Positions 13,801-49,511 of a DNA stretch of 64,000 nt are shown piece by piece. Every line of letters begins with the position of its first letter. The first letter of the stretch is position 1. Source of the stretch: Leptogorgia sarmentosa (lineage: Eukaryota); NCBI GenBank assembly GCA_964658305.1, contig OZ210885.1, positions 10,850,001-10,914,000 on the forward strand. The letters run 5' to 3'. Under the pieces are notes generated by a model, which searched no databases, was not told the origin of the DNA, and saw nothing but the letters and a program-made list of their open reading frames with translations. The translations under genes and the position numbers were made by a program.

Positions 13801-16800
13801 CAACAATTGGGAAAATGTATTCCAAAACATGATATTCCCCACCAATCATTGCTTTATTGAACCATTAAGGAAGTTTATAATAAATAATATGTTTTATCCG
13901 AATGAAATAACAAATATAATTCTGAAGAGACTCTATTGAAGTAAGATCTTCAAATATTAACTCATACAGTATTACATACCTGTTGCGACAACGCATCTCA
14001 CCCAATCTGTATGGCCAACCAAACTGGCCTCAAAATTTAGTGTATCGGCTTTCCACAACTTGATAGTCTTGTCATCATATCGAACAGTAGCAATGAACTG
14101 TCCATCTTTGGTCGTACACAGCGACTCGACTCCCTCAGGAATACTTGTTGAGAGGTTTTCTCCGGTAGATACACAATACACTTTCAGCCCTACAACGCAT
14201 GATGGATACTCGTCAGACTGATGTTTCAATAATGTCTAACCCTAGACGATTTTGTGAAATCTTGTTTTTAATTGTGTCCCTCTCCGGCGCTGATCCTGCT
14301 CTGGCTGTTGCTGGCTTATGTTTTTACACTGCGTTTCACTGCGCTCTACACGACGTTTACAGTTAACCGCTGGTTTGAACATACGCAGTCGCTGGAATCC
14401 TCAAACCAGCTGTTGCAATTATTGTTTAAATATGAACAATTTGTACTTTTGGCGAAGGTTGAGAGGTGCTACTCAAACAGACGTATCTGGTTTTCCCAGG
14501 AAATCATTTTACTACAGCTACGTTGTAAAACTGCTGTTCCTGGCATCAAACACAAAAAGAATTAGTGAACATGGTCCAATCACACGATACGAAGCGTTAG
14601 CTGTTTGTAAATTTCATAAACCCACCCTGTACCATAACTACATTGTGGTCAAATTGTATGCATTGTACAGGGCATCCATCCAGTGGTACTGTTGGTAAAA
14701 CTTGGTTACAGATCGCGAAAGTTACAACCGTGAAGCAAGGGCCATGTATGGCAGTCGGGCTTCGTTCAAAATAATGAAATTATACTTTGTTTTGAAATGT
14801 AGTCGATTATGTACAACAGGTTACAGGTACGAATTCAGATAAAATGGTTGAAATGTACGACGGATTAAGAACGAGCTCTCTTTCTCTCCAACACGTTTCC
14901 GAAAGTTGAAATACAAATTTTTAATTTTTTTTTTTTCACTGAGTATATACCGCACGAAATAAAGACAAACATCATTGAAATCCTAATAAACTGATCTTTC
15001 GAACGGTGGGTCGCATGTTAGTTAAAAAACAACACAAAAAAAAAATAAAGATTGATCTTCGGAAACGTAAGGAATTAGCATCTATCTGAGAAAAACAGAG
15101 TCCAATATGTTGAAATCCATCTCCTTATTTCTCCCTGAAGCAGCATATTCATGAAACCTGTTTTATGTTCGTGTTATTTGCACATATAATAACATTTCTA
15201 CAAGCTTTTTTGCAATTGTAAAAAATTTCCGCACGCGAACGGCATTAACTAAAACAGGATAAATCAGGTTGCGCAATATAGTCTGAAACATGTGGAAAAC
15301 ATGCCTTTGATTACGTAGAGTGCGTATTCGTATGTTTTTCAGTCTTGGATAAACTCACTTCTGGTTTATTCGCACACGACATAAAAAACACGACAGGTGT
15401 CCCAGGAATTTCGCCCCCCCCCCCCCCCCCACCCAGCTAATTATAGTTACAGGACGAATTCGACCTAAATTAATATGGTGTTGGAGAAAAAGAGTACTTT
15501 TCGTAAGTAATACATTTTTCTAAAATGTATTAACGATTATGCTGCACGAATCTGACGAAATGCTTCTGAATTTCACACATTCGCTACGAAGCGAATACTT
15601 AACTCACTGTGATGACTGCGTCGCTATTTAGAGTGCACTCCCACTCAAATATGGAACGTTACGTGAAACCCAAGAATTGAAACAATATGCATCAATCCGC
15701 TTCATAAACGTTCTTGCATTAAAATGTGAAGCAAATTTTTTTAGTAAGCAACGATGTAGCTAATGTGCACAGAGGCGTAACTACTAGGAGCCCAACCTGG
15801 CCGGGGGCCCTGGGAAGAGATTTCTTCAGGGCCGTGGCTAATGTGAAATTCAACTAATTTTTATAAGTTAACAAAATGTTTGATATCATTCAGTAGCTAG
15901 CTGAAACAATTTTGTTGCCTTTTAAATTGTGCTTGGATGTATATTAATAGTTGTATATTACAGTCGAACTTTTACTGTTGTCATTGTTTCTGCTTTATGG
16001 GAACTTATTTTAGTGTGCTTCTTTTTACGGAACGTTTTTGCCTTTTGGGTATAATTGAAGCAGAAGAGATGTTAAATAGCTATAATATGTTCGATAAGAA
16101 ATAGCGCAGTTAAAATGCATATCTTATGCAGAATTCAGGAGAATATTTCGTAGAGTTAGCATAGTAAAAATGTGAAGCTAAGAGGTATAACTAAGAGGCC
16201 ATCCACAACAGTTCAACCGAGGGCCGACACTGGAGATTTACGCCGCTGAATTTGCAACGTAAAACAAACATTTTGTGGACGTACTTTCAAGTATTTTTAT
16301 TTGAAGAAAAAATAATTATTTTAAGTTAATAAAAGTATTCCAATATTCAATTTGGTACCGGCGGGGTAACATATTTCCGAAAGTATGATCATTTCCGGAG
16401 TTATTTGACAAACATAGTATGAAAAGGATTTAATTTTTTCTCCAATGGCATCGTTGCTGGCGTTCCTTCAGAACCGTTAAATCCGTACACGTCAGCAAAA
16501 TCTTATTTCTTATCGAAACTCGCGCACTTTAATAATAACTTTTAAGCAGAGCGGAAGTCGAGAAAACGTTTATGCAAATTTTCGTTTGCCTATTCTGAAC
16601 AACATTTTGATATCCTAGTTTGATTTGTGTTTAAGATGCTTACCAGCCTCGTACCCAGGCGCTTCTTAGCTTAGAGATATTAGCAGGAATCCAGATAAAT
16701 ATATAGAGATCGGGCGCAAGCGCGCAAGGGTTGATGGGCAGGCGCGACGGAGGAAGCGCCTGGCAGAATATGCAACAAACATGGCGGGCGACTTGTCCAT

Positions 16801-19800
16801 ATTCATAAATGCAAATGAGGAAATTGCTGTTCTTGATGAAATTGACAGGCCAGTCCATCGAGCGGTACATTATTCCGAACGGTGTAATTTCTTCTTCCGA
16901 ACTCGACGATACTATTGAAGCGAAATATTTAAACGAATCGAAACAACGTAGTGTGTAACTGTGTATGCGAAGCGAGATTTGTCAGAATCGTCATAAAATC
17001 AAGATGACAGTATAAAACTACCTTCGAAAGATAATTCCTGAAGCGATCTTTCCAAATCATCCATATTTAAGTGCAACCGGTGCGAGATTTTTCAAAAATT
17101 ATCACATTTTCAAGCTTTTCATACGCAGACCACTTTTTGCAAAAGTGGGACACGGAAATTTGCATATTCTGCCAGGCGCTCCACAAGTCCGTCGCGCCTG
17201 CCCATCAACCCTTGCGCGCTCGCGCCCGATCTCTATATATTTAACTGTATTCTTGCTGATCTCTCTAAGCTAAGTAGGTAGGTAGGTAGGTAGGTAAAAC
17301 TTTATTTGACTACGCTTACCCCTACAGCAAGAGCTGGTTTCCAAGGGGGGCGTAGATTTAGATAGTTAAAAAAAAATACAATTAGCTAATTGATACAAAT
17401 TATGGTCATGCATTACATTACTGTTGACAAACATTACAATACAATAACAAATACAGCTAATATATAATTGTTTACATGTTAAATTAATGTTAATATAATT
17501 CTAGAGGCTGAATAATTCTAATAAGCTAATTAATTAATTGGCCAGGTGACGTATATATGAATTAAATGAAGCAAGAGAAAATTTGTTTCCTGCTTCATCT
17601 GGAAGGCTATTCGACAATTTTGCTCCTCTGTAGCTAAGACTTTTTTTAAGATATTCAGTCTTAGGTTTGGGCAAAAAGAGTTTGGTGGAAGAGCCTCGCA
17701 TATTGTAGTAATAAGAGGAAGGCGTCCCTTGAAAAAGATCGATTAGTCGTTTTGGCGCTAGTTCATGGGTTATTTTATACATAAGACTTGCTACGAAATG
17801 TGCTCTGTGCTCATTTAAAGGTTTCAATTTCAATTCGTCCAGAGCAAGTTCAGATTGACCGTGTTCGTTTTTACGGCCAGTAATAACTCTAGCTGCCCTA
17901 TTTTGTAGTTTCTGGAGTCGATCAGAAAGTGTAGCGCCAATGGTATCCCAAACTTCGCAACAATAATCTAGGTGTGGTAGTATAAGTGCATTATAAGCAC
18001 ATATTAATGTATTGTGATCCACACAAGATTTTAGCTTTCTGATCGCCCCAATGCCGGATGAGATCTTCTTAGCAATTTTATCAATATGCTTGTCCCATGA
18101 TAGAAACTCGTCAATATGAACTCCAAGTGCTTTTGTTTCTTTGACCCTTTTAATTGGTGTATCACCAACAAATACGTTTGGAGCAGCAAGTAAATTATTT
18201 ATGTTGTACCGTGATCCTATTAATAGGTACTCAGTTTTGACAAGATTAAGAGATAATCTATTTGCAGAAAGCCATTGTTTGACGTTGGTAAGGTCATGGT
18301 TTATGGCCACCTCTACATCTTGAATTGATTTGCCAGATACAGTTAGAGCCGTGTCGTCGGCAAACATTCTTGTCGACGAGTACTCCAAACTGTTAGGCAG
18401 ATCATTTACATAGAGTGGGCCAAGAATTGAGCCTTGGGGGATTCCACATGTAACCAACTTCGTGCCCGAGAGAGCGCCATTAACGGAGCACATTTGGGTT
18501 CTATTCGTTAAATAGGATTCTAATAGGTTTAATGATGGCTTCTGAAGGCCATAAAGATTAAGTTTCTCTAACAGGATATCATGATTTATGGTGTCGAACG
18601 CTTTTTGCAGGTCCAGAAAAAGAGCTATATTAAACAGACCACGGTCCATATTAATGAACCATTCATTTGTACTATCTAAAAGAGCAGAGGCTGTAGAATG
18701 AAACTTCCTAAAACCAAATTGACGGGGAGAAAACAACTCCTGTGTGTCAAGATACTCTTGGAGTTGTTCACATAATACTTTTTCAAAAAGTTTACTTACA
18801 ACAGGGAGGATAGAAATCGGGCGATAGTTGTTTAATTGGTTTCGTGGGCCGTTTTTAACTATGGGAGTGACTTTTGCGATTTTCCACTCAGAAGGAACAG
18901 TTGCGCTTATAATGGCCATGTTGAAAATTTTTGTCAATGAATTTGTAACTACAGGAGCAGCAATGCGAATAATTTTAGCAGGGATTTTGTCGATTCCGGT
19001 AGATTTACGAGGATTTAGAGATAACAGAAGTCTGTATACATTCGATTCAGACACTGTTTGAAAATTAAAACTACTAGATGTTGTCGTTATGTAATCTTTG
19101 AAATTTCTGTCACCAGAATCGATATTTTTGGCAATATCTGGGCCAATATCAGTGAAATAATTATTAAAGCACTATAATTATTAAAGCACAGAAGCGCCTG
19201 GGTACGAGGCTGGATGCTTACCATCGTCTGTTCCAATAAACACTCGCTGATCATCTGCACTGAAATCCAGAGCATTAACGCGACTCTCCCCTTGGAACAC
19301 AAAAAGCTGTTCATAATTAACCATTCTCCAAAGGATTGTACTTCGGTCCCACGACCCCGACGCTAGTATTGTTCCACTTTGTGACACAGCCAAACATCCA
19401 ACTCCCTCAGAATGTCCCAATAGTTGTTGAACTTCTCTACCTGTTTATAAATAAGATATCACGTATATAAAAGGGTGTAATAGGTAATTTTCACTCACAT
19501 CGTTACTACATTGGGAGTACTTTTCAAAACATTGCGGCGATAAAATAAATGATTGAGACAAGTAACTACATTAACTAACCCATCAGCTACACTCTGTTTA
19601 CACCGCTAACTTCCATTGTTACTATTACGTCCGTATAGCAACTTAAAGTGCCTATATCAGGGTCAGGGAAATGACTTATTTATGTAGTTCAGGTGATTTT
19701 AAGAACATTTGCAATATATTTGGTAAGACGAAAATTTGATCTTCCTGTACTTTTCGGACCTCAAAGTTGGTAATTTTTTCAATTTTCCGTGAGTACAAAG

Positions 19801-22800
19801 TACTGGTAACTAATTGACATTACCGACGGAAGTGACGTAAAAAGGAGAACACGTCAAATATGCAAAGTATAAATGCCATAGGAAAACAAAGCGTTTGAGA
19901 CGAAATAGCGCTCGAACCTCTTTGAAATATAGACTTTTCGGTTAAAGTTCCTGTGAGAAGATGTCGTCAAGTTTTTCCGACAATTTTGACAGCCAACTAG
20001 ACTCGGATAGATTTTCCATAACGGAATATGTAATGCGAGCAAGCGAAGAACAATGGCAAAGTTTGCAACCGTACCAAGACGAACCGATTGCAAATGTTGC
20101 GTGGAGAAGCGTTAAAGGCAGAACTTGTCGTAGAGGAAGTTGGATCTGTGCAATCTGGCAAAGAAATGGTTGGATATACACAAATCCCGAATTCGTCGCT
20201 CTTTAGTATGGCTTTCAATTTCGCTTTATCGCCAGTCAAGCGAACATCGAAACGCCGAGTAAAATCTCCTGCATTAAAATGCCTGGAACATATCTTTGAA
20301 GAGGCAGATGGTTCAAAGTTTAATCGCCTTCTTCGAACAAAATCGACCCATTTCTTCCTTCGTTTTTTTGCCTCTGGTCGATCAACATTCGCAAAAGGAA
20401 TAACGTGCAGCGATATTCCTTCGTCTGAACTGGTAACATTCGAACATCCATAAACTGCAGACCTGTGTGGCATTTTAAGCCCATAAACGTTTAGAGCAGT
20501 AAGAAAAAATATTTATTTTCGAAGATACAGTGTTCAATGTTGCTGTTTTTACTATAAAGCCCTATTGTTGTCAACGCATGTGTTCTCTTTCTACGTCACA
20601 TCCCATAACTACTTACCAGTAATTGTATCTCACGGTTAAGCGCTAAAATTACTGAAAATTACCAACTTTGAGGTCCGAAAAGTACAGGAAGATCCAATTT
20701 TCGTCTTATCAAATATATTGCAAATGTTCTTAAAATCACCTGAACTACATATTAAATAAGTCATTTCCCTGACCCTGATATAGGCACTTTAAACAGCAAT
20801 GTAAGCGATAGACAAACACCGAAACGATCTTCAATACTAAAAACAAAATAACTGTAATTTTGCGGAATTTACTGTGGCGTGTTTTACAGGCGTGTGTTCT
20901 CATTCGTTACTTCTTGGGATTTCATAAAAGTATGCTCTCATCTTTGTTGTGCAAGTCCATAGATATAGGTATCGAGCCAACTTGAACGCTTGGGTAAGAC
21001 TCGCTACAGGTCCCTGTTGCCTCGATAACTAAAGTGGTAGAGTAACGGTCAATGCCAAACAATTTACTGAAACTTATAATATATTTACTAGTGTTTAAAA
21101 TTTAGTGGCTGATGTTGGCGGTAGAACAGGCGGTAGAACATGCATGAAGCTATGAACAGGAAATATTCTATACAGCGAATACCAATGATTGCACAGGAAT
21201 GTTGTCCTACTTGTATTTGTAATTACTGAACTTTCACATTTTAAAATTGGCATATATCCATTAATTTTATGCACACGATTTCTTAATAATTGTATGTTTT
21301 ATTGTTTAGAAGAAATAATATGTCACTCTGTCCGAATTGATTTTTATAGTTTGATTAATATGTTGCAGACAAAAGCATTCCCTCCAGCCATTTGTGAGAT
21401 TTTTTAATTTTTTACCCAGTAATCATTGATCCAGAAATGACTGAATTAATTTTTATCCCAGCGTAAATCTGGATGAACATGTCTCTTCAAGTTTCCAATC
21501 CAAATTTCAAATATCATCATATGACGACGACTACCGTAGATGATTGGCTAATTTTCTAATGAATTATCAATTACTTTACTTTAACCTTTGTTCCCTCACA
21601 CATAACAACTGCATATTAACTATATTCTCGTTTCAATGAATAACCAAGATCAAAGCTTTTGTTTAGCTAAAAAGGCATGTATGAAGATGTTTAAAATAGA
21701 GTCATAGTATATACGCTACAATTCAATTTGTCAGCTTCCAAAACTGAAACTTTTCTCAAAAACCGGGGCAGTGGGCTACAGGCACTGAGATATAATATTA
21801 CTGGAGAGAGTGCACTCGACTTCTTCCATACAAAGGGGTGAAGCCAAAAACATGACGGATTTTCCGTTGCTGACGCCACTGGTTCTTATTTCTCATATAA
21901 TTTCCACTGACCAACAGCGGTCTCATGTTTCCGACCGACGATTTTCCCTCTTTGTTTTTGTAAAAAAAAGCCGAAATTTTGTTTTTAGCTATATTGAAAA
22001 AATTAAGACATAAAGGCCGAACTTTTGCACGGCTGAAAAGGTTTCACAATCCTTATAAGAAAGCAGATTATTTGAACCAGAAAGGTAAATGTAATCCTTT
22101 TTTATGCAAAAAATTGAATAAAATATTTTCCAAAACGACTACCTTTCAAGTTTCAAATGGGAATTTCGAGGTCTGAATATCTGTGTCGCTTCATTTTTAA
22201 CTAACTAGAATAGATGTCGCTACTTCTTCGGTCGTCTTGAAGATATCAAGACGATATGATATATCAAATGATATCAGAATGTCAAACTAGGGATCCAAGG
22301 ATAGTGCAAAGTTTCTAAGGCCCGTTTCATACGTCTAATTTTGGTCGCATCGAATACAGTTCAAACAATGGATAATGAAGTTAGTCATCTCATTATTCAT
22401 TGTTTGAATTGCATTCGATGCGACCAAAATTCCACGTTTGAAACGGGCCTAAGAAGACATTAAAATCATATTTTGAAAATAATCACTATTTTATTGTCAG
22501 AAAGCAACTGGCAGTCGCAGCAGCGCGTGTGTTAAAAGCAAATCAGATAAATCTCTGACCTCTGACCTTTTTAAAATACATACACATCGTACTGATACTT
22601 CTGCGTCGTAATAAAATATCCCGTTTATTCACAGTATCAGGCCAACGTTAAATTTACTTTTGTATCCCTGTATATGGTTTAGTTCTTTTAGTATCGAAAA
22701 TTCTGTAAATCCCTGGTATGTCTGGTAAACAAACATTTGCGAGGCCGGAAGACGGGAAGAGTCGAAGACGGCGAAAACAAACACGGAAGCTATAAATGCG

Positions 22801-25800
22801 AAAGCTCGCAAATATGTTGGCTATCATCAACCATATTAACTAAATACAATTTAAAATTATGGCTATCTTGTTGTGACGAGTTCTACTGTGTTACACATCT
22901 GAGTTTGCCCGCTATTTGCGAATTGCGATGGCAATGTCGGCCAACTAAATATTTTAATATAATACGCACGGCGGCTGGTTAACAGTAGCTATTTTAAATT
23001 GTGCATGACGAGCCAAATACAAGTTTCTGCTAATAATGATAATAAATTTAAATCTCTATATTCATTGCTGATATATAAAGAACATTTTAACTGCTTTATC
23101 AACGTATTCAGACATGTTGGCCACATGTTATCATCATAGTGAATTACTGATTCACGGTCTCACTCTTAGCGTCCGCCATATTGTGTAATTTCATTCCCTG
23201 ATTCCCCAGACATTGTGCTGAGTTGCAATTTTTGCAAAAACTTAAATTCCGGAGGGGCCTCCGCCACTGTGTACTGTATTGTGCGCTTCTTTGATCACAT
23301 TTCTCATCTAACAAACTTTCGTATCAATGAGAACAACTGCAAATAATGATGACCAATGATATATAACTGCAATCGAATCATTTTTGTTCAAACATTCCAA
23401 GGATATCAGTCAACTACGGAGTTTCGCATATCAGGAGAATTTGGGACGCTCCCCCCGGAGTTTACACTATGAATGAATCGCTGAATCGCTGAATCGCTGA
23501 ATAGCTGAATAGCTGAATCGCTGATGTGAATTTTCGCCCCTCATCACAATACTGCAAAGTTAAACTTTGCACTAAAAAGGAAGAAAACCGAAATATCCTT
23601 TGCAAAAACCAAAATATTTTCGCCAAAACAAAGTTAGTTGTGGTCAGTGGTGCTCCAATGAAAATTAGGAACCAGTGGCGTGGATTTCAATGAATCCACG
23701 CCATAATTTTGGCTTCACTTTTTGATGCCGTGCACTCTCTCCAGTATTTCTTTAGCTCAGTGGCTACAGGTCTAAAAAATTTGGATAATTATCCGTGTAA
23801 CGAAATGAGATTTGGATGGCGTAATATTATTAATACTTACTAGTTATTTGCGCGAAATATGACGTGTGTATACAGTGGTTTATTTTACACTGCACCATTG
23901 CTTTAGCTGAACCGGTGTAACTGTTTCTTGAAAAAATTCCAACATCTATTTCAAGCATAAAAAGGTCAGCACTCATTTTCAAGCTGAAATTTAGACCCCG
24001 TCGTCGAGTTTGTGGCGTTGTAGATTTTAAGGTCCCTACTATTAATTATTGGACGACGTCGCACGAAATACCGCGAGTTATCGTTGGCGAGCGGATCAAT
24101 TATTTGCCGATTCCGAAAAGATCAGCACGTAATTAATCTGAGAACAACCGATATATAACTGAAGCAAAGCATAGCCACATTAACTGGAGTGATACGAAGC
24201 ATAATGGGACGAGCCCTGAGGCCAGTGGCCAGTGAGCTCCATGAGATTATATATAGCGCCGTAAATTTCCGACGTAACATGTACTTTAATAAACTTTTTA
24301 TCTACTTAGTTCATTATCAGCGCTAACGAAAACAATTGAAGCTGAAGGCTAGTACAACGTTTCTCGACAAGTGGGGATTTTGCACTGCAAAGTTTTGTTA
24401 ATTAATAACGTCACCCGACTGGCTTTGCGAAATTGAGAGCGATTTCAAATTTGCTCAGTTTTTTTATACACGTATATCGCGCAGCCGCTCAACTTCATAA
24501 CTCAGAACTGATGATTCTTTCAAATGTGAGTGAGGATATGGTTGCACATATAATTACAATTACAAGCAGAGGCGGCATTGAATCTGTGTTTTATCCCTTT
24601 TCCGGACCGACGATCGGTCAAAAAAAAAAAAAACTATTGAAAACCCCAAACCTTGCCATTAGTTTTATCCACAGTACGTTACCACACGGTTACCTACCTG
24701 TGTCAAGATCAAAGATTGTGATTGAACCATTCCTTAAACCACAAATGACAAGAGTAGCAGATGGAGTATTGGACGTCGCTAATGAGTATACTTCTGAATC
24801 AAACGTTTTTCGAAAGATCTCAGGGCCGCCAAGATCTAAACATGAGAATTCCGGTATAAGACGGCAAGTCTCCGTGCATGTTGCACGAAGTTGCTCTAAT
24901 AGCGTCTTTATCCCCGGATACTCTTCATAAGATAGCAGTCTGCCTGGAAAACAAAAATACACAACAGTATTACCGCACGTATATAACAAATTCAGAAAAT
25001 TTAAAATAGCATTTAAAGATGAAGACAATTTCTGACCGGGAAAAAATAAAAACTGAACAACTAACGGGATTATACTAGCTATATATATATCTGTTTCTTG
25101 ATTATTAATATAATAGGTTCTTAAAATTCATCATATGAGTTCTTTTCTAATTTCTAAAGGAAGTTTTTGATTGTTTTAACAAAATGTTCGTTCCCGTTCA
25201 GTGAATTTCATATAAAGGGGACATAAAGAAAAAACGTTTTTGAAAGGTTTGCAATTGCATGTTAAAATGATGTTGTATTCTGTTTTATATTGTGACAGTA
25301 AAAAGATAAGTAATTTATTTTATGATAACGGAACGAGTATTTATGAATTGATTTATTTCCGCATATGGTACACTGACAAGGGTTAATTCTGCTATATACC
25401 AGCAGTTGTCATGCTTAGTTGCTAGTTACAATTTTGTCATCAGAACCAACGATTAACAGAGTATAGTATGGACTATTGCTTACTTGATTAAGTTAGCAAT
25501 AGTCCATAAATATCGACTTCAGTTCTGGGAAGAATAATCCTTCTTAGGTCGTGTCTTCAATTGTCAAACTCGTTTTGAGACAATCATTCTTTGCATGAAA
25601 CTTTGTATAGGCTTCAGAAATTGCTACATGTTAGTATTTGCAGGTTTTTGAATCACATTTTTGTGGTATCTTGTAGAGAGAAATTGTACCAACATGATGA
25701 TCTTTGAATGAAATTAAGCTTTTTATTCTACGCCTTTTGTCTTATAAATGTGCTCATTAAATAAACCAACTTTTTCATGGGAATGTCTAGACGGTTCACG

Positions 25801-28800
25801 ATCACATTTTCTAGCATGTCGCAAATGTTTTATACATCATGAACTAGTTTTGTTGATAAAAGTTCACCTTTTATATTCGTATTAAAATCATTGTTACTTA
25901 GCTGTAAACTAGCATCGGATGTTGTTTTTGAATACTTGTGATTGACCTTTGATGCATTTTCAAGGTCATCTGAACTTTTGATTCATACAAGTAAGCGTCT
26001 CATAAGCGTAATTGTTTCATATATAAATTTTTCATAATTTCAGATAAGTTAGCATAGTTTCTCGATTACACAAGGCTCGCTGGCAAGTGAAGGGAGTGGT
26101 GATAACACATTGGCTATCTCCTCGACGTTTTCCTCGATTACATAAGGCTCGCTGGCAAGTGAAGGGAGTGGTGATAACACATTGGCTATCTCCTCCACGT
26201 TTTCCTCGATTACATAAGGCTCGCTGGCAAGGGAAGCGAGTGGCGATAACACGTTGGTTATCTCCTCGCCTTTTACTTTTAAAACCAGCTCACTGACGAG
26301 TCAAGAGGTTTTCAGAAATGTCGTAAGGTTTGCACTTCATTTTCTTCGATCGTATACTAACAATTCTTTGTGTGTTGGCACGAACTCATATGACGTTGTG
26401 CGACAGCCACATTGATTCGTATCGATCAGCCAGCTAATTATTTTCAATACACGCAGCGTGTTGTGCACGTGTTATGGTTTTATAATGATCTTTGGCAACT
26501 TACTCAACTGAGTGTACTTCCATATTTAGTGAGCCAATCACCTTGAATTACCCAAAGCATGCTTTACACGTGCTATACGAGGTACTGCGTCATGCGTAGA
26601 CGCACATAATGTGACGATTTTACATTTGCTGTAATTACAGCGTTTACATTTTGTGGTCTTGTGGTAGTCAAACATTGTTAACCACTTCACTGATTGACGG
26701 CCCCACTCTAAGCGTTCGCCATATGTTGTGTAGAAATTTTAATGCCCGAATGAATGCTGAGTTTGCAATTTTTGCAAAAATTGAAATTCCGGAGGGGCTT
26801 TCCGGCATTGTGTACTCTAACTTGTGGGCTTCTTCACCTATAGCTTACTTTTCTATTCATTAGAGTAACTGCAAACCATGATGATCAACGATTTATAGCT
26901 ACAATTGCATAATTTTTGTAAGGATATCAGTCAATTGTGGAGTTTGTACATGGGAAGATTTTGGAAAGCACCCCCCATGCCCCCTCCCCCATCGAGTTTA
27001 CACTATGAATGAATGACTGATGTGAATTTTCCCCACTCATCAAAATAATGCCAAATTTCTTCGAAACTTTGCACTAAATAGTGAGGCAACTTAAACAAAT
27101 CATAGAAGAATGAGACAAATTAAAGTTCATTATTTGAATTACCTAGGAGTTGAGGACAGATAGAATCTGGGTTTTCGTTGATGACATCGGCAGAGAACAT
27201 TAACGACGATTTGAGAAGTTGGATTTCCTCCGATTCTGTGTCCACAAAACGAAAATCTGATATTACAGAGAATACGCTGACGTGTTTCGCTTTTTGTTTG
27301 AGCCAGTGTAGATCAAACAGCAACTGGAGTAGTTCACTATGTCGTCCCGAAGAATAAATGTGATAGGGTAGGTACTTGAAATAATAGTCTTTTTGGCAGG
27401 TAGTTGAATTATCATTCCAGTCACCATCCACGCACAGGCCACAAAGTGTCTTTACGAACTTATCCTGAACATCATTTAGTGTACCCATGTCTTGAAGTTT
27501 TGTCTGGGCAAAATCCAAAAGCAAGTCATGGACACGATAGCTTTTCTTTCCGCGGAGTTCAGGCCCTGAAATTGATCGAAATGTTAGGAAATTTGTACTA
27601 GAGGCGGACAATTTTTGAAATCTCAAAATCGCCGTTGAGTAGTATAGAAGGAGTTGCGCTATCAGGTTTTCGTAAATACGAAATGGCTTAGTCACAATAA
27701 GAATAATTATTGGCTATATCGAGCCAAGAATAATGCAATATCTGTAAAAAGACACATAGACTTAAGGTAGTCTTGGTAAAACTCCTAATTCCTAAAAAGC
27801 AAACAATATTTTTTAATTTACATGATTCGCCTTATTATTACAAAACATCAAAAAATCCACTTGATCCACTTTGCAACCTGTATTACTGGTTCACTGACTG
27901 TTGTAAATTTTCGTTACTAATGACAATACTGCAAAGTGAACTTGGCACTGAGATAAAAAATTTTCGGAGGATGTGCAGATCAAAACCGTTAAAAGATAAA
28001 ACTGTACCTTTTAAGATCAGCGACTTTCTCTCGAGCACAGCAAGTATATCTTTGTGTTTCTGGTTCTGTATCGAACACCACAGCAGCTCGAGTACATCTG
28101 ACGGTATATCTGTATCCTCTGGAAATATAGCCAAATAAAGAAACATCTCGCGTACACTTTCGTCCAGGCGTTGATAGCTCACATCAATGACTGCTAAGAG
28201 GTTATCATAAGGATAATCGACTTTGGGAAATAATGAACGAATTCTCTCCAGGTCAGCATTTTTAAGATCATCTAAAACATCCTCCCAGTCTTGTTCCGCA
28301 CGAGTGTCCGTTAAATTTGAACCCACCAGTGACAGAGCCAGCGGTAAACCTCGACACTGCTCTAACAGGTCTGCAATAATTCGCCGTAAGTTTGGCGTTA
28401 ACTGTTCGTCTGGACGTATCCCAGCGCTCTGATACAACAGCCCTCGGGATTTATCTTGTGACATAATAACAAGTTCGTACTTAGTAATTCCCGAACCGCA
28501 GAGAACAGTAGCATCTCTAGTTGTTATTAGTAATTGGCATTTGCCAGATAAGCAATTGAATACAGCAGCGTCGTCCACCTTCCAAACATCATCAACAACA
28601 ACCAAACAGTCTTTATCAATCTAAAAATGAGTTGAAAACTAGCTCAGAAATCGTATCTGTTAACTGCATTCAAAGGTTGGTAAAATTTACAACTCTTACT
28701 GGCCAAGGACTTTAAAGGCTCGCTTGCAATTTTTTAGTGCCATTTTCTGGCCTTTCTGATATATGAGGCACATGTTCATAGGTGGATTTATGACGAGTGT

Positions 28801-31800
28801 TCTGATTTTATTATTTCTGACTTCCGCAACTGGTTTAGTCTTTCACCTCTATCAAAGCGGAAATAATAAAAATCGTACTAGAAATAGCTGCAAAAATTGC
28901 AGTGTAAAAGAGTCCCAACTGCCAATGCATGATATGAGTGAAGTTTTCTAAAGAACTGAGAAAGTAGAGGTAATATTTATCATTTATAGACCCGGAGGCA
29001 ATATGAAGCAAATATTTCGACCATTAGTCAAGCCACATCAGTCGTATGCAAGTATATATTGTTTTCGTTTCACAAGAATGTACGAGTTAAGAATTGTGCT
29101 TTGTTTACAAATACTTACACGAGCTGGCAGTACAACGCACGAGAAATTTTCAATACTGAACGAGGCGAAGCCGAGTTAAAATGCTAACTTTGTTTTAAAA
29201 ATTAAAGACAATTAATAAAGCTTACCACCCTGTGCATGTGGTCGTGTGAAAGAAAAGACTTGGGAGAATTGCAACTATTATAGCTTTAACATCCATCTAA
29301 CATCAGACTTCTACATTTAACGTCGCTTTAATTTACGTTTACCAACGCTGTACCGGATATATTTTTCTGTATTCGTGCAAGTTCGCTATTCGAGCTTAGT
29401 GGCGTCCCCAGAGCCGATAAGTGGGGTGGACATATTCATAAATTCGTGTTCGCAGACCATAAAAACAATCGATTTCAAAAGAAATTAATTGTGCAAAACA
29501 CGAATATATGAATATGTCCACCTCACTTATCGAGCTGGGGACGCCACTGTTCGAGCTACATCCCATTAAAAATCGTCCCTACCTTGAAAATAGCGCTATC
29601 ACATTTTATCACAAACATCAAATATAGCACACCATACACACATACCGTGTATTTTCTTAACCAAGATTGCGCTGCAACAATATCACTGAACGACACATCT
29701 CCGCCAAGGACTCTGACGAGGGTGTTAATCAGTTTCAAGCGATCAGGTGTTTGACCAATGTCAAGCCAGACAACTTGACGAGATTTTGAGACTTCCCAGG
29801 CAACAGCTTGGGCTAACACCGTCTTACCGAGGCCTCCCATTCCACGGATACCAACGTCCCCACCATGACGTCCAACAACACCCACTTTATTTCCCTGCTT
29901 GAGTAACTCCAATATCTCGGTTACTTCTGATGGCCTTTCCACCATGTGAGCAGGTAGATTGCGTAATCCATACGGAACTAGAATATCGATTAAAAAATAT
30001 AGATGATAATTTTGAAATCGCTCTGCTGCACGCTTCAAATAATTGTGCATACCAGAATGCATATTTGTATAATTTCAACTTTGAACATTAATTTCGTTAA
30101 ATATTTTACGTCGCTCTGGCATTAAAATCTCTTGCTACAGTTTGCGGTGTATTGTTACTGAAGTGAGTCTAAACTTTATTTAAACTTTCCCAAGAAAAGC
30201 AATTTGTAGTGTGCTTTACAATTATTGATGGGAAGTTTCTACGTTGTGGCTGTTCCTGTTTGGTCGTTTATGCTTGCGCGCGCAGAAGGTGCTAATTGGT
30301 ACAGTCTTTCCTCACCACCTGTACTGCAGGATGAGAGAACTTGGAGTACGTTATGATTTTGAAGTGCTGTCCACTGCGTGCAGTGGTGATATAAAGATAT
30401 GTAATATCAAACTACCATTCCTAATCATCGAGGTCACTCGTGCATATACTATATGGAAATTGCATTGGAAACCATGCCAATATGTACCTATACAAATAAG
30501 AATTAGACATTCTAGGGTATGATTCGGCTTCTGGACAGCCGACGTTTCATTGTATATATCGCGCAACGTCCATTTCAATTGAAGCTTTCAAATCATGCTA
30601 TAGAATATAGCTATAAACATCATTTACAGCATGGATGTTTAGAAAGTAGTGCAAACGAATAGTGACATCTCGGCAATCAGAGCTTCTAAAGTCACAAAAG
30701 TGGCAACCAGCAAGCTGGCCAGTCTCTTCCTACAAGTCATATAACTTTGCCGACAGAACACTTTTCCTAACGCCGGGACCTCCATTTAGGATCATAACTC
30801 TGGATTTCGTATCGCGAAGCCATTTTTCAAAGTCGTCAAAGAACGATTGTCTGGTCCCTTCTTGAAATTTTCGAATAAGCTAGTCAATCTTTCCATTAAA
30901 GACAAATTTAGCTAATTTTCAGAAGATTTTACATTTTCTACCACAGTTCGCAACTTGACAACTTGACTTTCAACATTGGCTACTGAATCTCCTATTGATG
31001 AAGCATTTGAGGACATAAATCAAAAGAAGAAGCATTTAACTACTATCAGCAACATTTAAGCATTCTTGTCGCAATTGAGCGGCGTCAACTTTTCACGAGC
31101 GTTTTTTATTTTGCTGTGACCTACGCAGTTAACCCGCCCAACATTAAAATTCAATTTTTTAGTGATGATGAGTGCGACAGCGCGTACTGCACTGCCAATG
31201 CTTTCGGATTCCCACTAAATCTGGGAAGTGTTAGAAGACATGTTGCATTCCTGTTGCCGTTTACTCTAACGAGATATTTTCCTACAAGAAATTCTTAGAA
31301 ACAGAACGTTGAACACCGGGAAGGTTCCTGGGGGACAAATTTCGAAAATTGAATGGCTGCCTGACTAGTCTGTAAATTTTTCTGCATAATATATTCTGCA
31401 TAAATGGTTTCCGATCTTTCCTAGTTAATTGAAACACTACCTTTTTTCTCTGCAAAATCTGAATGCTCCGTCCACGCCTTTTTCTGACGACATTCGATTT
31501 CATCTGTTTTCTCCGCCAGACGTTTAAGCTCCATTGAATGATGTTCAAGTTTCTCTGCTGCAGACCTTTCAACCTCTTTAATTTTGCGAAGCAGTGTGGA
31601 TTGTATGTTATCGAGTTTCTCCATCGCTGGATTTATCTGAATAGATAAAATTGATTTAGTAATATTCAATTTACGGGCTGAAACAAATTTGAAATCACTC
31701 TCAGCTTCACAAAGCGGCTTAAGGTGTGTGATGTAATAATAGTTATAATCTAACGTTATTAGTATAGGTAATTGTATGGTTTCGAGTGCAATTTGGAAAA

Positions 31801-34800
31801 ACATGCACGAGTGAGTTTTTCAAAGACATTCAAATTGCACGAGTCCAAAGGACGAGTGCAACTTGAAGTCTTTGAAAAACTCCTGCACGAGTGTATGTTT
31901 TTCCAAATTGCACGAGAATGTTAACTTGTTAATAACATACATGAAAAAAATTTACATAGATTATACTTGTCTCGCCTTGTTCGGCCGCTAATATACGGAG
32001 ATGTTTTGCTTGTCCACCGACCACTTGCTTGAAGGAAGAGGAATTTCTGTCTCGTATTATAAAAAGGTTGTCATCATCGACTGCTGTTAATATCACTTTT
32101 AACCTGTCTGGTTCATATTCATCGCCGTTTCATTTTTAATTCACAGTTTTCGTTTAGCATAAAAACAATCGAGCAAAATATATAATCTAACACCTGTTAT
32201 TGCGGAATATTTTGTACTCAAGCTGTATTTTCTTTTCAATGCGCCACTTTATCCGCACAATCAAGATTTGCTAGATATCTTTGGTGGTATTTTCATTTTT
32301 CGAACTATTTGTAAGTCCCTCTATCATTTGTCTGTTGCCTAAAAAATCTACCCAAAGAGGCAGCCATTTTTTCATCCTTGAATAATTTCATTTTTTGTTA
32401 TTGTTCGCCAGAAATGGCTTAATCTGATTGGCTAGCTTTGTAATCTTAGCCAATCAGGAGACATAAACATCTGGAGAAATTTGCACTGAATTTCTTTTTT
32501 TGGCACTGTATTCCCTTGTTTGGTACTGTATTTCCTTCAAATTGCACTGCTCTCAGCCAATCAGATTCGAGAAATTTTTTCATGTATATTATTAGATTAG
32601 AGATTAAGATGAGTATGTAAATTAATGAGATAATATATATGAGCCGAGGACAGAGTTCGTGGTGTGTCCACAGTGTGCTGTGGACGACCTGACAAGTAAA
32701 GAGGGCAAGGTCACGCAAGGATTCGAGAAGAGTTAGTTGGAATTGAAAGCGTGTATCGAGGTGACTGAAAACAATCTTAGGCGAGAAGAGTAAAGTAAAA
32801 TTGTTAGTTCCTAAATGAAATATAATTACAAATCTTGTTTTTTCATTGGACAATTTGAATTTGAGGTATAATTTTTATCATTTATAGACCCTCCGCTCGG
32901 GGGATTCGGCGATATTTCCCTCAGTGATGATATTTGCCTCGGGGCAGAGCCCCTCGGAAAACATCATCACTTCGGGAAATATTACGCCGAATCCCCCTCG
33001 CTGCGGGTCTATAAATGATAAATATTATACCTCAAATTCAAATTGTCCAATGAAAAAACAGGATTTGCACTAGAAAAACAGGCGTGCTATTAACGTGTTA
33101 CTATAACACGTCCCCATGTTCTTACAACACAGCCGTGTTGTTGCAGATGTCAAACGTGTTGCAAATGTGTTGTGAACAACATGCCACAACACACTTGCCA
33201 ACACATCAACGTGTTACGAAAGGACACGGTATTAGTGAGGATTTACTAAAACACGCTACTAACACAGTAAACGTGTTGTGGTCTGATTTGTAACACGTCA
33301 GTGTGCAAATGTCTTACTTTTACAACACGCGTGGCGTGTTTCTTCAGGAATGTGATAGGACACGCAAATGTGTTCTATAGGACACGCAAGATGTGTACTT
33401 CGCAACACGGGTAGTGTGTCGTTTTTGCAACACACCAACTTGTCCCCTATATCGACACGCTTGAGAGCAGGTGTGTTTTTAGAGCACGAATGCAGTGTTC
33501 TGACAACACACCCGAGCTCGCAACACGCTACATCCATAACACACCGCCGTGTTCTTACGGGGTTCCTGGCGTGTTATTAACAACACGCCAATATTTTCAG
33601 ATGTGTTGTTGCAGTCGTAACAACACGCTTAAACAGAAACACGCCTCCTATAACAACACGCCACATTAGCGTGTTGTTATAGGGGACAAAAAGTGTGTTC
33701 CTACAACACGCTTGATTTTCTAGTGTGTACCACGTGATAGTGTGATTTTTCGCGGTATTTCACTAAAATTCATGATTTCGCAATCCAGCGTGGGATACTA
33801 TAATATCCCACGGCAGATCCACCGTGGGATATTATAGTATCCCATGCGTGACGCGTGGGCAACACGCGCTTAGCATAGCTATGGAAAATGGCGGGAGAGC
33901 AAGACTCGACGAAGAAATAAATAGACTTCTTGAAAACAAAGATGCAAAAATATTTTGTTCGGTATAATATATCATTTATATAGACCCTCCGCTCGGGGGA
34001 TTCGGCGGTATTTCCCTCAGTGATGATATTTTCCTCGGGACAGAGCCACTCGGAAAATATCATCACTTCGGGAAATATTACGCCGAATCACCCTCGCTCC
34101 GGGTCTATAAATGATAAGTATTTATCAGTAATTGATATGTAGTGTGTTTTATTCAAACCCGCATTTGAAACATGTCTTATATTAATTTGAACAGCGTCTT
34201 CCTACTTATTCAACGACTGTTAAATGAAACATCAAAAGTTCCTCAAACCTTTGTGGCGTCCAAATCGTAGTTTTTGATACAACGGCAAAGTTCAGCTACA
34301 CTTTCTGCAATTAGTTTTGCGTGACGACCATCAACAAGAATGTCTGGAAATAATGAAGAAAATTTATCTTGAGTATCGCAAACACTATAAATATACCGCT
34401 GCTAATGCGCGTAGCACGAAGGATACATGAAAAAGCATGCCCTGCTGTCCATACAAACTATTTGATAAGCATGGTCTGTCGTCGTTACTAGCAAACTTCA
34501 ATATGCGGCCAGAGTAGTGGATAGGGGATAACAACATCAGCAAGCAGCACTTGTCATACCCACAACCTAAACAATGCAAATAGGTTGGACGTTTTGAGTA
34601 AAGTAGATTTTTTGCATGATATAGACATGCAAAAATTTCGAAATAGTACAATCCAGAGCAACAGCGTTAAAGAGTATCACAAAGTTAGTAAAACTGTAAA
34701 GTCTGGTTGAGAAATGTTTTAAAATGCGAAAAATATGACCCTGTAAAGTTTTCAAATTTTGTATATTTTAGTATTACCCATGCATTTATATCCTTATCGA

Positions 34801-36125
34801 GAAAAGTCTATCAATTTTGCGTGCCTAATACTAAAATGAAAAAAAAAATGGCAAAATTGCATTAAACATTCCTTTTATTCGATAAATACTGTATATGATT
34901 GACCCTGTAAAGTTTTCAAATTTTGTATATTTTAGTATTACCCATGCATTTATATCCTTATCGAGAAAAGTCTATCAATTTTGCGAGCCTAATACTAAAA
35001 TGAAAAAAATGGCAAAATTGCGTTAAACATTCCCGACTTTTGAATGATTGAAGTTTTGAACACAAATGTCCAACTGGAATTAGTACGATTTACGAAGTCT
35101 AATTCATGTGAAAATTTTGATTTTATGCATATGTCAGCATATATTAGTTGTACTATACTGTATATCATGTTGTATACAGTATTAAAGGCATTTAACTTCT
35201 GCACTTATATGAAGGTCTAAAAATAAATCACTGTCACCAATTCAACACATGATTTCTATGTAAAGTTTCAAAGTATAGCTACACTATTGGAGAATTTAAT
35301 TTTTTTTACCTGTTCGACCACATATAATTTCAACGATTGATCGTATTGAGAATCGCATTGAATTGTATATATGGTAATATATGAATAAAATTGAATGATA
35401 ATAATAATAATAATAAATGAATAATAAGAGAAATTCTTTCAACACATGGGGGTTTTCTTACAGGAGATCAAAAATGATCTGCGCAAAACATATTTAAAGG
35501 CATGATGAAATTCCGGCAATAATGCTAATAATACAGTACCTGTTTTATTCCAGAAGTCTAGTTCATCACAAATTATTTTTTCGTCAGCTATTGGTAAATT
35601 TAATATTTTGACCAAAGATTCCATTCCTTGAAACGAGGCATTGAACATATGTACTGTCCATTCAGAGATGTTACAATGAGCCCATGGGTTTCTGATGTCC
35701 GACCGAACTTTGTTTGCTTCAGCTGCAGCACCAGATGATACAAAAGGGTCTGCCTTGCCGATAATAGTCAAAAGTGCTGACATATCCATGGTTTTATCAA
35801 ATCCAGTGAAATGTGCCATAAAGTCCGTGACGAATAGTTTCGCCAAAGAGACAGGATCTTTAACAGCATAATCATAAGCTGATTTAGTACGCTTGTGGAT
35901 AATGTTATTGTTAATGTTCTGATATTGTAGGTTATGTGTGGAAGGGGGTAATTTCTTCCTTCTGTATGCTGCGAAATCTTGCTTTTGAATTTCATCAGGT
36001 GGTTGGCATAAAGAATGATACCATTTCCCAAGTTCAGTGGCGACAACTTTCCTCAATGCAGGTGCAAGAACTTTGGTAAAGGCAATGCCAACTAAAACCC
36101 AATGTTGTTCTTCCTCTGATATCAT
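1281..36125 (-). CDS. Gene A: multi-exon HEPN-like / coiled-coil / NB-ARC / WD40 STAND receptor (APAF1-like architecture, not a clear APAF1 orthologue), 3' end not found
   Basis: Manual splice model: 36125-35540, 34343-34249, 31636-31441, 29977-29646, 28620-28008, 27565-27143, 24943-24698, 19440-19222, 14189-13980, 11326-11083, 10259-10021, 8232-8135, 5030-4622, 1885-1281. All introns are GT-AG with matching phases; 4515 nt = 1505 codons with no stop. Confidence 0.85.
2385..3155. mobile_element. Tc1/mariner-like foldback MITE
   Basis: TA|CAGGGTGTATCAAAAAAAAG...CTTTTTTTTGATACACCCTG|TA; near-perfect inverted arms over about 330 bp. Confidence 0.85.
4622..5030 (-). CDS. Gene A exon 13: WD40
   Basis: VWNLSDG...FSSDGLQVIIGCEDNHVFIWDW...ISPDGKRVLFGS. 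Confidence 0.88.
8135..8232 (-). CDS. Gene A exon 12: WD40
   Basis: GDLEWAKHVAVSADGRYVVSLSKEYNSTKSSIK; caatag| acceptor and |gtatgg donor. Not in the ORF track. Confidence 0.8.
9019..9308. mobile_element. Palindromic MITE with CCCTAA/TTAGGG near its centre
   Basis: AGGAGATCGCT...AGCGATCTCCT, arms about 130 bp; lies between older inverted arms at about 8790-8930 and 9545-9680. Confidence 0.75.
10021..10259 (-). CDS. Gene A exon 11: WD40
   Basis: LTASLDQSIRVWNL...SAANDGTFKVWNL. Confidence 0.88.
11083..11326 (-). CDS. Gene A exon 10: WD40
   Basis: GTIKIWDL...LEGHESYVTSIAVS...SVRLW...GHTGSI; an alternative in-frame acceptor would start at 11320. Confidence 0.88.
13980..14189 (-). CDS. Gene A exon 9: WD40
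   Basis: VESLCTTKDGQFIATVRYDDKTIKLW...GHTDWVRCV; 210 nt, phase 1-1. Confidence 0.9.
17275..19189 (-). mobile_element. 5'-truncated CR1/L2-group non-LTR retrotransposon
   Basis: RT ORF with NYRPISIL, DLQKAFD, GIPQGS, FADD; 3' AATAAA followed by a (TACC)n tail. Confidence 0.92.
17534..19054 (-). CDS. LINE reverse transcriptase (ORF2 fragment; frame extends to about 19170)
   Basis: 506 aa ORF with RT motifs; apparent short in-frame deletion at GPL-YVND. Confidence 0.9.
   Translation of the reverse strand: MSESNVYRLLLSLNPRKSTGIDKIPAKIIRIAAPVVTNSLTKIFNMAIISATVPSEWKIAKVTPIVKNGPRNQLNNYRPISILPVVSKLFEKVLCEQLQEYLDTQELFSPRQFGFRKFHSTASALLDSTNEWFINMDRGLFNIALFLDLQKAFDTINHDILLEKLNLYGLQKPSLNLLESYLTNRTQMCSVNGALSGTKLVTCGIPQGSILGPLYVNDLPNSLEYSSTRMFADDTALTVSGKSIQDVEVAINHDLTNVKQWLSANRLSLNLVKTEYLLIGSRYNINNLLAAPNVFVGDTPIKRVKETKALGVHIDEFLSWDKHIDKIAKKISSGIGAIRKLKSCVDHNTLICAYNALILPHLDYCCEVWDTIGATLSDRLQKLQNRAARVITGRKNEHGQSELALDELKLKPLNEHRAHFVASLMYKITHELAPKRLIDLFQGTPSSYYYNMRGSSTKLFLPKPKTEYLKKSLSYRGAKLSNSLPDEAGNKFSLASFNSYIRHLAN
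19222..19440 (-). CDS. Gene A exon 8: WD40
   Basis: LLGHSEGVGCLAVSQSGTILASGSWDRSTILW; 219 nt, phase 1-1. Confidence 0.9.
19647..20788. mobile_element. Kolobok-like DNA transposon, internal-deletion derivative
   Basis: TTAA TSD, AG...CT termini, TIRs about 130 bp, THAP ORF; empty TTAA site in copy B at about 52589. Confidence 0.88.
19997..20473 (-). CDS. THAP zinc-finger fragment of the transposase
   Basis: GCSN...W...ICSRHF...PTI; the first Cys position reads Ser. Confidence 0.82.
   Translation of the reverse strand: MPHRSAVYGCSNVTSSDEGISLHVIPFANVDRPEAKKRRKKWVDFVRRRRLNFEPSASSKICSRHFNAGDFTRRFDVRLTGDKAKLKAILKSDEFGICVYPTISLPDCTDPTSSTTSSAFNASPRNICNRFVLVRLQTLPLFFACSHYIFRYGKSIRV
22286..23575. 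mobile_element. Helentron-associated non-autonomous element (HINE/DINE-like)
   Basis: Sub-terminal TAGTGCAAAGTTT / AAACTTTGCACTA inverted repeat, terminal palindrome, (TGAATCGC)n tract; related copies at about 26720-27077 and 52290-52493. Confidence 0.6.
22319..22449. mobile_element. Tourist/Harbinger-like MITE
   Basis: TAA|GGCCCGTTTCA...TGAAACGGGCC|TAA palindrome. Confidence 0.75.
24698..24943 (-). CDS. Gene A exon 7: end of helical domain and first WD40
   Basis: GRLLSYEEYPGIKTLL...VYSLAT...CGLRNGSITIFDL; 246 nt, phase 1-1. Confidence 0.85.
26060..26268. repeat. 72-bp minisatellite, about 3 copies
   Basis: CTCGATTACA recurs at 26061, 26133 and 26205. Confidence 0.9.
27143..27565 (-). CDS. 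Gene A exon 6: MHD-type motif and APAF1-like helical domain
   Basis: YRVHDLL...YYFKYLPYH...WL...CPQLLG. Confidence 0.9.
28008..28620 (-). CDS. Gene A exon 5: NB-ARC Walker B, sensor 1, GLPL, winged helix
   Basis: CLVVVDDVW, LLITTRD, CRGLPLAL, LAIFPED. Confidence 0.92.
29397..29549. mobile_element. hAT-like MITE
   Basis: TAGTGGCGTCCCCAG...CTGGGGACGCCACTG with 8-bp TSD TTCGAGCT. Confidence 0.85.
29646..29977 (-). CDS. Gene A exon 4: NB-ARC Walker A
   Basis: LPAHMVERPSEV...VGIRGMGGLGKTVLAQAVA. Confidence 0.9.
30661..30915 (-). pseudogene. Decayed NACHT NTPase exon (HET-E/NPHP3-type N-terminal part) inside a gene A intron
   Basis: Translates LAKFVFNGKID*LIRKFQEGTRQSFFDDFEKWLRDTKSRVMILNGGPGVRKSVLSAKLYDL*EETGQLAGCHFCDFRSSD: GTR motif, broken Walker A, HFC motif, two stops. 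Confidence 0.8.
31441..31636 (-). CDS. Gene A exon 3 (coiled coil)
   Basis: INPAMEKLDNIQSTLLRKIKEVERSAAEKLEHHSMELKRLAEK...; canonical splice sites, phase 0 to 1. Confidence 0.7.
31756..32595 (-). mobile_element. Crypton-like non-autonomous element with terminal hairpin
   Basis: Bounded by direct repeat TTATTAG; hairpin 31781-31918; CCAAT boxes and AAAATGGC on the minus strand. Confidence 0.55.
32831..34117 (+). mobile_element. Crypton-like element with the same hairpin at both ends
   Basis: Hairpins at 32876-33022 and 33970-34117; ORF stub MENGGRARLDEEINRLLENKDAKN at 33881. Confidence 0.55.
33068..33725. mobile_element. CACTA/CMC-like non-autonomous element
   Basis: CACTAGAAAA...TTTTCTAGTG termini, 2-bp TG flanks, dense ACACG/CGTGT motifs. 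Confidence 0.75.
34249..34343 (-). CDS. Gene A exon 2 (linker)
   Basis: ttccag|ACATTCTT...ACAAAG|gtttga, reads DILVDGRHAKLIAESVAELCRCIKNYDLDATK; bridges phase 1 to 0. Not in the ORF track. Confidence 0.65.
34737..35032. repeat. Local tandem duplication (about 135 bp unit, two copies)
   Basis: TGACCCTGTAAAGTTTTCAAATTTTG... at about 34737 and 34900. Confidence 0.85.
35540..36125 (-). CDS. Gene A exon 1: DZIP3/HEPN-like N-terminal domain
   Basis: MISEEEQHWVLVGIA...VRSDIRNPWAHCN contains an R-x4-H HEPN-type motif; phase-1 donor ACAG|gtactg. Confidence 0.75.
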
Positions 36126-48515: not shown

Positions 48516-48700
48516 CGCCAACATGCTTCTCAACGAATATATGGCCAGAAATGTCGAAGTTTGGTACACAGTAAAGTACGAAACAGTAAAAATTAACTTA
48601 CATTACATTAAGAATCAAATATTTTATTGTTTCGTACTTTACTATGTACCAAACGTCGACATTTCTGGCCATATATTCGTTGAGAAGCACGTTGGCGACA
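48512..48700. repeat. Palindromic MITE-like hairpin
   Basis: TCGCCAACATGCTTCTCAACG...CGTTGAGAAGCACGTTGGCGA. Confidence 0.75.
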
Positions 48701-49301: not shown

Positions 49302-49511
49302 CTGTTGCGACAAAACATCTCACCCGAGCTGTATGGCCAACCAAACTGGCCTCAAAATTTAGTGTATCGGCTTTCCACAACTTGATAGTCTTGTCAAGAT
49401 ATCCAACAGTAGCAATGAACTGTCCATCTTTGGTCGTACACAGCGACCTGACTTCCTCAGGAATACTTGTTGAGAGGTTTTCTCCGGTAGACACACAATA
49501 CACTTTCAGCC
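49302..49511 (-). CDS. Gene B WD40 exon (last one found)
   Basis: Paralogue of 13980-14189; 11 nt differences by hand count. Confidence 0.88.

Follow-up and report, generated by a model that had tools for sequence, protein, structure and literature searches.

An intron of an APAF1-like gene of the octocoral Leptogorgia sarmentosa contains a decayed fragment of a NACHT gene, which is best explained, with a probability of about 0.8, as young and functionless debris of a different STAND family. Comparison of relatives indicates that the HEPN-like head of the host gene was indeed swapped onto its APAF1-like core, between NB-ARC-type lineages, and that the donor was not a NACHT gene. The window, a stretch of 64,000 nucleotides analysed as a whole, holds two tandem minus-strand APAF1-like genes, the host gene and an upstream paralogue, and the nearest named relatives of host gene and relic alike come from Dendronephthya gigantea and Paramuricea clavata. 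The comparison material consisted of relative proteins (P numbers) and public contigs of sequencing runs X4, X8, X12 and X13. None of these runs is recorded as RNA; X8, X12 and X13 were regarded as RNA-like because they show canonical joints that skip introns, or spliced loose ends.

The host gene and its third intron

The host gene is an open, spliced gene consisting of a HEPN-like domain, a coiled coil, an NB-ARC domain, an APAF1 helical domain and WD40 repeats (Table 1). Exons 1–8 together comprise 903 open codons, and the joints of introns 1, 2, 4, 5 and 6 were found in X8 with canonical ends. In neutral simulations of a 903-codon reading frame at d = 0.05, none of 500 runs retained zero stops, which indicates that the host gene is constrained. 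The core matches the Pfam models for NB-ARC (PF00931), the APAF1 helical domain (PF17908) and WD40, and is APAF-1-like among STAND proteins: the NB-ARC, APAF1-like winged helix, APAF1 helical domain and WD40 parts of the APAF-1/CED-4 family are all present. The heads of that family are death-fold or TIR adaptors, whereas the host carries a HEPN-like putative RNase and a coiled coil. Neither a CARD nor another death-fold adaptor was found at its N-terminus, exons 1 and 3 gave no Pfam match, and the NB-ARC part matched only generic NB-ARC clusters in the ESM Atlas.

Table 1. Features of the host gene and of its third intron (window coordinates).
Feature	Position	Strand	Evidence or remark
Exon 1, HEPN-like domain (Swt1/CXorf38/DUF4559-like), RNxxxH at R145–H150	35540..36125	-	Joint to exon 2
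Exon 2, helical linker	34249..34343	-	Spliced contigs
Exon 3, coiled-coil-like, phase 1 end	31441..31636	-	Spliced contigs
Intron 3, contains the relic, spliced out	29978..31440	-	Joint 29977/31441, canonical ends, X8 and X13
Multi-copy dispersed repeat adjoining the 5' end of the relic	30998..31300 (right end approximate)	.	Contig tables
Relic, decayed middle fragment: coiled-coil end and first ~85 aa of an NPHP3_N-type NACHT	30661..30996	-	~335 bp
Exon 4, NB-ARC start, Walker A intact	29646..29977	-	Pfam
Exon 5, remaining NB-ARC and APAF1-like winged helix	28008..28620	-	Pfam, joints
Exon 6, APAF1 helical domain	27143..27565	-	Pfam, joints
Exon 7, start of WD40 region	24698..24943	-	
Exon 8, WD40	19222..19440	-	
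Further WD40 exons	~14189-13980, 11330-11080, 10259-10021, 8232-8135, 5030-4620, 1886-1282	-	Ends not all fixed

The two tandem genes (13720–25500 and 49031–58825) are 85–98% identical across several WD40 exons and introns and 68–75% identical in the exons on the NB-ARC side, and the dS of exon 7 between them is 0.05, compared with 1.03 for the NB-ARC paralogue comparison. This pattern suggests that the sensor part has recently undergone gene conversion or been partially duplicated. Right after exon 8, a LINE-like insertion (17534–19171) holds a 545-aa reverse transcriptase ORF (RVT_1) and, to judge from the alignment blocks, is apparently missing from the corresponding intron of the upstream paralogue. 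Intron 7 contains a THAP-domain ORF (19997–20512) inside an element whose inverted ends were recognized by eye near 19650 and 20780. In an intron of the upstream paralogue, an open DDE_Tnp_4 ORF (367 aa) faces a 262-aa ORF without Pfam match (54167–56453), presumably an intact PIF/Harbinger-type element. The 3' part of the same paralogue (46000–48600) contains a long inverted duplication, with ~45990–47100 mirrored at 47100–48500 as seen by eye.

The relic lies on the strand of the host gene, 450 bp past exon 3. The joint between exons 3 and 4 was seen in X8 (side 67) and X13 (side 97), which come from two different studies, and a single 751-nt X13 contig holds both exons; the relic is therefore spliced out. 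No joint entering the relic was found among the eight listed joints or in the three RNA-like runs, this splice evidence consisting of assembled contigs from which rare isoforms can drop out. In one X12 contig, exon 3 is joined to a cryptic acceptor at 31281, which would yield a 335-aa protein of HEPN and coiled coil only. A short frame with a YEPD motif (31929–32129) gave no Pfam match and is reminiscent of fragments of Crypton/tyrosine-recombinase elements.

The NACHT relic and its family

The NACHT relic is genuine. The minus-strand frame 30918–30667 corresponds to the beginning of a NACHT domain, interrupted by two TAG stops, and its Walker A motif is GPGVRKS instead of GPGVGKS, the G>R change falling in a column that is 99% conserved in the family. 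The relic matches Pfam NPHP3_N (PF24883) with an E-value of 8.4e-10 and 39.5 bits against a cut-off of 24.8. Its best match within the family, P0017, is identical at 69 of 84 residues (82%), the family median being 61% over 84 aa. A family profile, built from 116 N-terminal parts after omission of six NACHT-set proteins without a Walker A match, scored 127.5 bits at 30933–30661, and none of 200 shuffled introns exceeded 2.5 bits. These matches, set against the shuffled control, establish that the relic is real, and they uphold the initial annotation in placing a NACHT start, broken by two stops and altered in its Walker A, on the gene's strand within intron 31440–29978. The coiled-coil-like stretch that it had placed ahead of the NACHT start was likewise recovered: such a frame precedes the NACHT frame across a frameshift, at which other contigs carry seven extra bases (30916), and the family profile weakly matches a coiled-coil frame starting at 31013 (iE 0.013). 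The proposed extent of 30661..31020 was correct at one end only, the homology running from 30996 to 30661. The relic deviates at six of the 39 columns conserved at 90% or more, two of these deviations (N-G before Walker A) being common to P0017 and P0018. Given the frameshift, the two stops and the G>R change, it has neither an open frame nor an intact Walker A, and no family match to an upstream HEPN_DZIP3 domain or a downstream NACHT body was found elsewhere in the window.

The relic is a piece of the anthozoan HEPN_DZIP3-NACHT(-WD40) family, exemplified by the Paramuricea clavata 'E3 ubiquitin-ligase DZIP3' (P0073). Unlike those proteins, it is disabled and retains only the coiled-coil end and ~85 NACHT residues, without HEPN_DZIP3 or WD40. 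Among the best 120 of 418 matches to the relic, 117 carry HEPN_DZIP3 (PF18738), and a tblastn search of the window with 122 NACHT-set proteins gave 137 HSPs, all on the relic. In the tree, the relic nests among family members, nearest to P0017 (branch 0.22 against 0.006) and then P0018, with SH-aLRT values of 92 and 87 (unstarred). Both neighbours also look damaged, P0017 having a shifted-frame start at the same coiled coil and an early end, and P0018 the same Walker A G>R change as the relic. Full-length JGI gene calls in the family measure 1045–1390 aa on contigs of 8–17 kb. Since JGI gene calls of that kind do not splice, they suggest a family of single-ORF genes, seemingly with no intron at the position of the relic's AG considered below. 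The available text of PMC8260672 gives 83 DZIP3-HEPN-NACHT proteins for Dendronephthya gigantea. In a large birth-and-death gene family such as this, debris like the relic is ordinary.

The initial annotation had described the relic as a fossil exon. An AG at 30993–30992 does have the appearance of an acceptor for exon 3, with a fair pyrimidine tract, phase 1 and a frame that agrees with the coiled-coil reading, no more than 5 nt from the edge of homology. None of the eight listed joints, which derive from contigs, uses it, and in the relatives it lies inside codons translated as I-G-D or I-S-D. In P0018 the reading frame is continuous from the HEPN_DZIP3 end via I-G-D-S to the NACHT and, the family apparently being one of single-ORF genes, the acceptor-like AG falls within coding codons, at variance with the description as an exon. 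The pyrimidine tract is supplied by the multi-copy repeat, which ends at 30998–31002 and whose other copies run on into unrelated DNA at that point, and paralogue contigs lose their match to the relic at 30996. The position of the AG was treated as a coincidence, though it may have been used in the past. A 12-nt near-direct repeat (31026–31037 and 30997–31008; family D8) ends at the junction and is short enough to be due to chance; the surroundings of the relic showed neither terminal inverted repeats nor a clear target-site duplication.

The relic is also probably younger than the joining of head and core. Four contigs of intact-like paralogues differ from it at 15/144, 15/186, 9/112 and 14/112 bases (8–12%); three of them carry the seven bases absent at 30916, and the fourth does not cover that place. 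An X4 contig from the same locus (30456–30744) shows 12 differences in 289 bases, and the second stop is missing from it, which makes some of the decay specific to the haplotype of the window. Between the host gene and P0002 (~66% identity), dS is extrapolated to ~0.7, or ~0.35 per lineage, compared with at most ~0.1 for the relic, a rough estimate that rests on extrapolated dS and on contigs from other individuals. For the NB-ARC paralogues within the window, which are 55% identical, dN is 0.30 at the dS given above. As the HEPN/NB-ARC junction is common to P0002 at 55–74% identity per exon and the relic has diverged by only 8–12%, the junction is probably the older of the two, by several times, and the relic does not serve as the footprint of the origin of the HEPN that it had been taken for.

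Relatives of the head and of the core

The head encoded by exon 1 is likely a HEPN, on the evidence of a conserved motif and a structural model, and is predicted to be a putative RNase. All 12 sequences compared retain R145, N146 and H150, which conform to the R-[DNH]-x3-H motif, as defined in the accessible part of bioRxiv 10.64898/2026.05.28.728550. The exon 1 model is all-helical (pLDDT 70.7), with the C-terminal domain of Swt1 as its top fold match (Z 7.6, rmsd 3.3, 118 aligned), tied with non-HEPN acyl-CoA dehydrogenase bundles (Z 7.3); several HEPN chains are among the top 15. In Atlas clusters scoring 0.97, 11% of members carry HEPN_DZIP3 or DUF4559, the recognition value lying below the mark of the tool. 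None of the Pfam HEPN models matched exon 1 above cut-off, and weak HEPN_Swt1 matches were obtained in 6 of 11 head relatives (best E 0.026). Searches against the PDB gave no match with Foldseek at E ≤ 0.001 and none with phmmer. A HEPN homodimer prediction scored 0.00, which has no bearing on binding either way. The RNxxxH motif and a predicted helical bundle are common to the host head and the CXorf38/DUF4559 and Swt1-like HEPN family (PMC3710099), from which the head differs in having no Pfam HEPN match on exon 1. According to the sections of PMC3710099 consulted, HEPNs of the CXorf38 and DZIP3 types are fused to NACHT in animals including cnidarians. The reported cnidarian CXorf38/DUF4559 fusions are mostly NACHT proteins with Ank, LRR or TPR tails, whereas the host has an APAF1-type core.

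Scoring of 1161 candidates gave 15 head relatives. The best, P0002 (70%), is a HEPN-like-NB-ARC-WD40 protein that shares exon 2, the coiled coil and the junction with the host, the amino acid identities of exons 1–8 being 70, 70, 55, 74, 60, 69, 60 and 67%. Ten octocoral-type relatives (51–63%) and two from Mytilus (~40%) have the architecture NB-ARC/AAA_16-DUF7779-TPR(-MYND)-beta-helix, and the remainder are a Mytilus nSTAND3-ankyrin protein and a fragment. The same HEPN-like head is found on three different NTPase chassis. None of the 15 is a NACHT gene, contrary to the expectation that the closest HEPN relatives would sit on such genes; some TPR-type relatives gave weak NPHP3_N/NACHT cross-matches (best E 0.004 and 0.0025). 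One relative, P0008, has an extra N-terminal domain of ~200 aa ahead of the head.

The HEPN-like-NB-ARC-DUF7779-TPR-MYND-beta-helix proteins of Dendronephthya and Mytilus (P0003–P0013, P0015) share the host's head and differ in their tail, which is WD40 in the host. Compared with P0003–P0012 and the Mytilus relatives, the host is only 22–25% identical in the NTPase, against 51–63% in the octocoral HEPN; this disparity reveals the head swap. Exons 2–3 are weakly similar to the same family (E 1e-6). In the HEPN tree, from which the partial P0016 was omitted, the host and P0002 pair (94/99) within an octocoral group (100/100) with Mytilus outside, and a test of whether the host HEPN nests within the TPR-MYND set gave an AU p of 0.53. 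Because the TPR-MYND architecture also occurs in Mytilus, the HEPN-NB-ARC-TPR-MYND-beta-helix family is by parsimony the likely donor of the head.

On the side of the core, neither the two HEPN profiles nor the first 292 residues of the host matched any of the best 150 NB-ARC representatives for exon 5, the closest of which (55–70%) are fragments whose head is not readable. Apart from P0002, the closest NB-ARC relative with a recognisable head is P0145, a DED-NB-ARC-WD40 protein (DED E 5e-16; 43% over the core) in which the YGLR.LP start known from the host follows immediately on the DED. P0150 carries a different short head, and more distant NB-ARC rows (31 of 150 scanned) carry TIR, trypsin, SIR2 and other heads, bearing out the prediction that the closest NB-ARC relatives have other N-termini. 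None of the 122 NACHT-set proteins matches host exons 1–3 (best blastp E 0.19 for exon 1 and 0.053 for exon 3). The family of the relic carries a different HEPN, DZIP3, which aligns with the host head only remotely (hhalign probability 26%, identity 20%), and the proposed derivation of the HEPN module from a NACHT-type NLR is not sustained. What stands of the proposed effector swap between STAND clades is the N-terminal exchange onto an APAF1-like core; its NACHT donor does not.

In the part of PMC2246300 used, the Apaf-1 family is CARD-NB-ARC-WD40, with DD-, DED- and TIR-headed paralogues in Nematostella, amphioxus and sea urchin. For five stony corals, the accessed rows of PMC10236652 file 16 give CARD or DEATH heads for all five NB-ARC-APAF1-WD40 rows; the seven APAF rows comprise five CARD/DEATH-NB-ARC and two DUF4062-NACHT. 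The 23 of 27 DUF4559 rows examined there are 22 NACHT and one NB-ARC, and DZIP3-HEPN-NB-ARC-TPR is common among the first 30 of 228 NB-ARC places in file 17 (PMC10236652). Domain assortment is described as routine in fungi in the portion of PMC12258605 seen. No published description of a HEPN-NB-ARC-APAF1-WD40 architecture was found in a search that mostly lay outside subscription literature. Other coral STAND proteins are already known to carry HEPN heads, and the HEPN-like head on an APAF1-type core appears to be new. A first metagenome scan gave 212 pattern matches and no relatives; the single match of a second (L001) was prokaryotic and due to chance.

Origin of the relic and of the head

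A broken HEPN_DZIP3-NACHT-WD40 fragment of ~335 bp is likely to have entered intron 3 well after the joining of head and NB-ARC, by ectopic repair or together with the adjacent repeat, and would then have decayed without function. The initial annotation had named an independent insertion as an outcome that would speak against its proposal; such an insertion fits the data best, and the host head most likely does not come from the relic's family. The three-exon head itself was likely grafted at a phase-1 intron from the HEPN-NB-ARC-TPR-MYND-beta-helix family and, judging from the relatives, would have replaced a death-fold head. As a counterpoint to the insertion, CXorf38/DUF4559-type HEPNs occur on coral NACHT genes (PMC3710099 and PMC10236652 file 16, in the parts available), and a hybrid paralogue with the host head on a relic-type NACHT may exist elsewhere in the genome.

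It is distinctly unlikely that a NACHT gene, or a large part of one, inserted recently, provided a temporary alternative 3' end by way of the fortuitous AG and was afterwards reduced to a stub. The AG is in frame and in phase, the donor of exon 3 uses another intron-3 acceptor in the X12 contig described above, and the relic is young; however, no joint into the relic was seen in the three RNA-like runs, only ~85 NACHT residues are left, and the frameshift and first stop are common to most of the covering depth of run X4. Highly improbable is the reading in which exons 1–3 once belonged to a NACHT gene, the relic was its fourth exon and the head was re-spliced onto an NB-ARC-WD40 core. The in-frame phase-1 AG with its pyrimidine tract at the 5' edge of the relic, the shared strand and short distance from exon 3, the DUF4559-type HEPN-NACHT genes of stony corals and the other heads on NB-ARC relatives would all suit it. 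Against this, the HEPN relatives include no NACHT gene among 15, the relic family has another HEPN subtype and seemingly no intron here, the divergence of the relic is too small for the age of the junction, and the tract comes from the dispersed repeat. Mis-assembly of a paralogous NACHT piece into the intron is barely credible, for although the region is repeat-rich and family copies are many, the 3' junction of the relic is crossed colinearly by X4 (30456–30744, with the differences given above) and by X12 (30601–30721).

Ligand-triggered oligomerisation is a feature of APAF-1. Carried over to the host gene, ligand binding at the WD40 end would lead to nucleotide exchange and oligomerisation, whereupon the RNxxxH motifs would meet and cleave RNA, a mechanism proposed on the model of APAF1 and of HEPN nucleases, with odds that appear about even. 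An unlikely extension would make the host gene an octocoral apoptosome-like receptor that kills or restricts viruses by direct RNA cutting, with a CXorf38/Swt1-type HEPN brought onto a DED-type APAF1 core by exon shuffling in phase 1; intron 3 would be a live swap site at which young pieces of other STAND genes arrive in frame downstream of the head, and the NACHT stub would be a failed capture.

As the relic illustrates, a fossil that lies in frame within an intron is not necessarily a trace of the origin of the gene. The host gene represents, by comparison with its relatives, an animal case of a head swap between two NB-ARC-type lineages that can be dated. With a putative nuclease head on its APAF1-type core, the gene would have no need to recruit caspases and would act like bacterial STAND-nuclease defence proteins. 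If the HEPN activity depended on oligomerisation, this would provide a direct test of the role of HEPN heads on coral STAND proteins.
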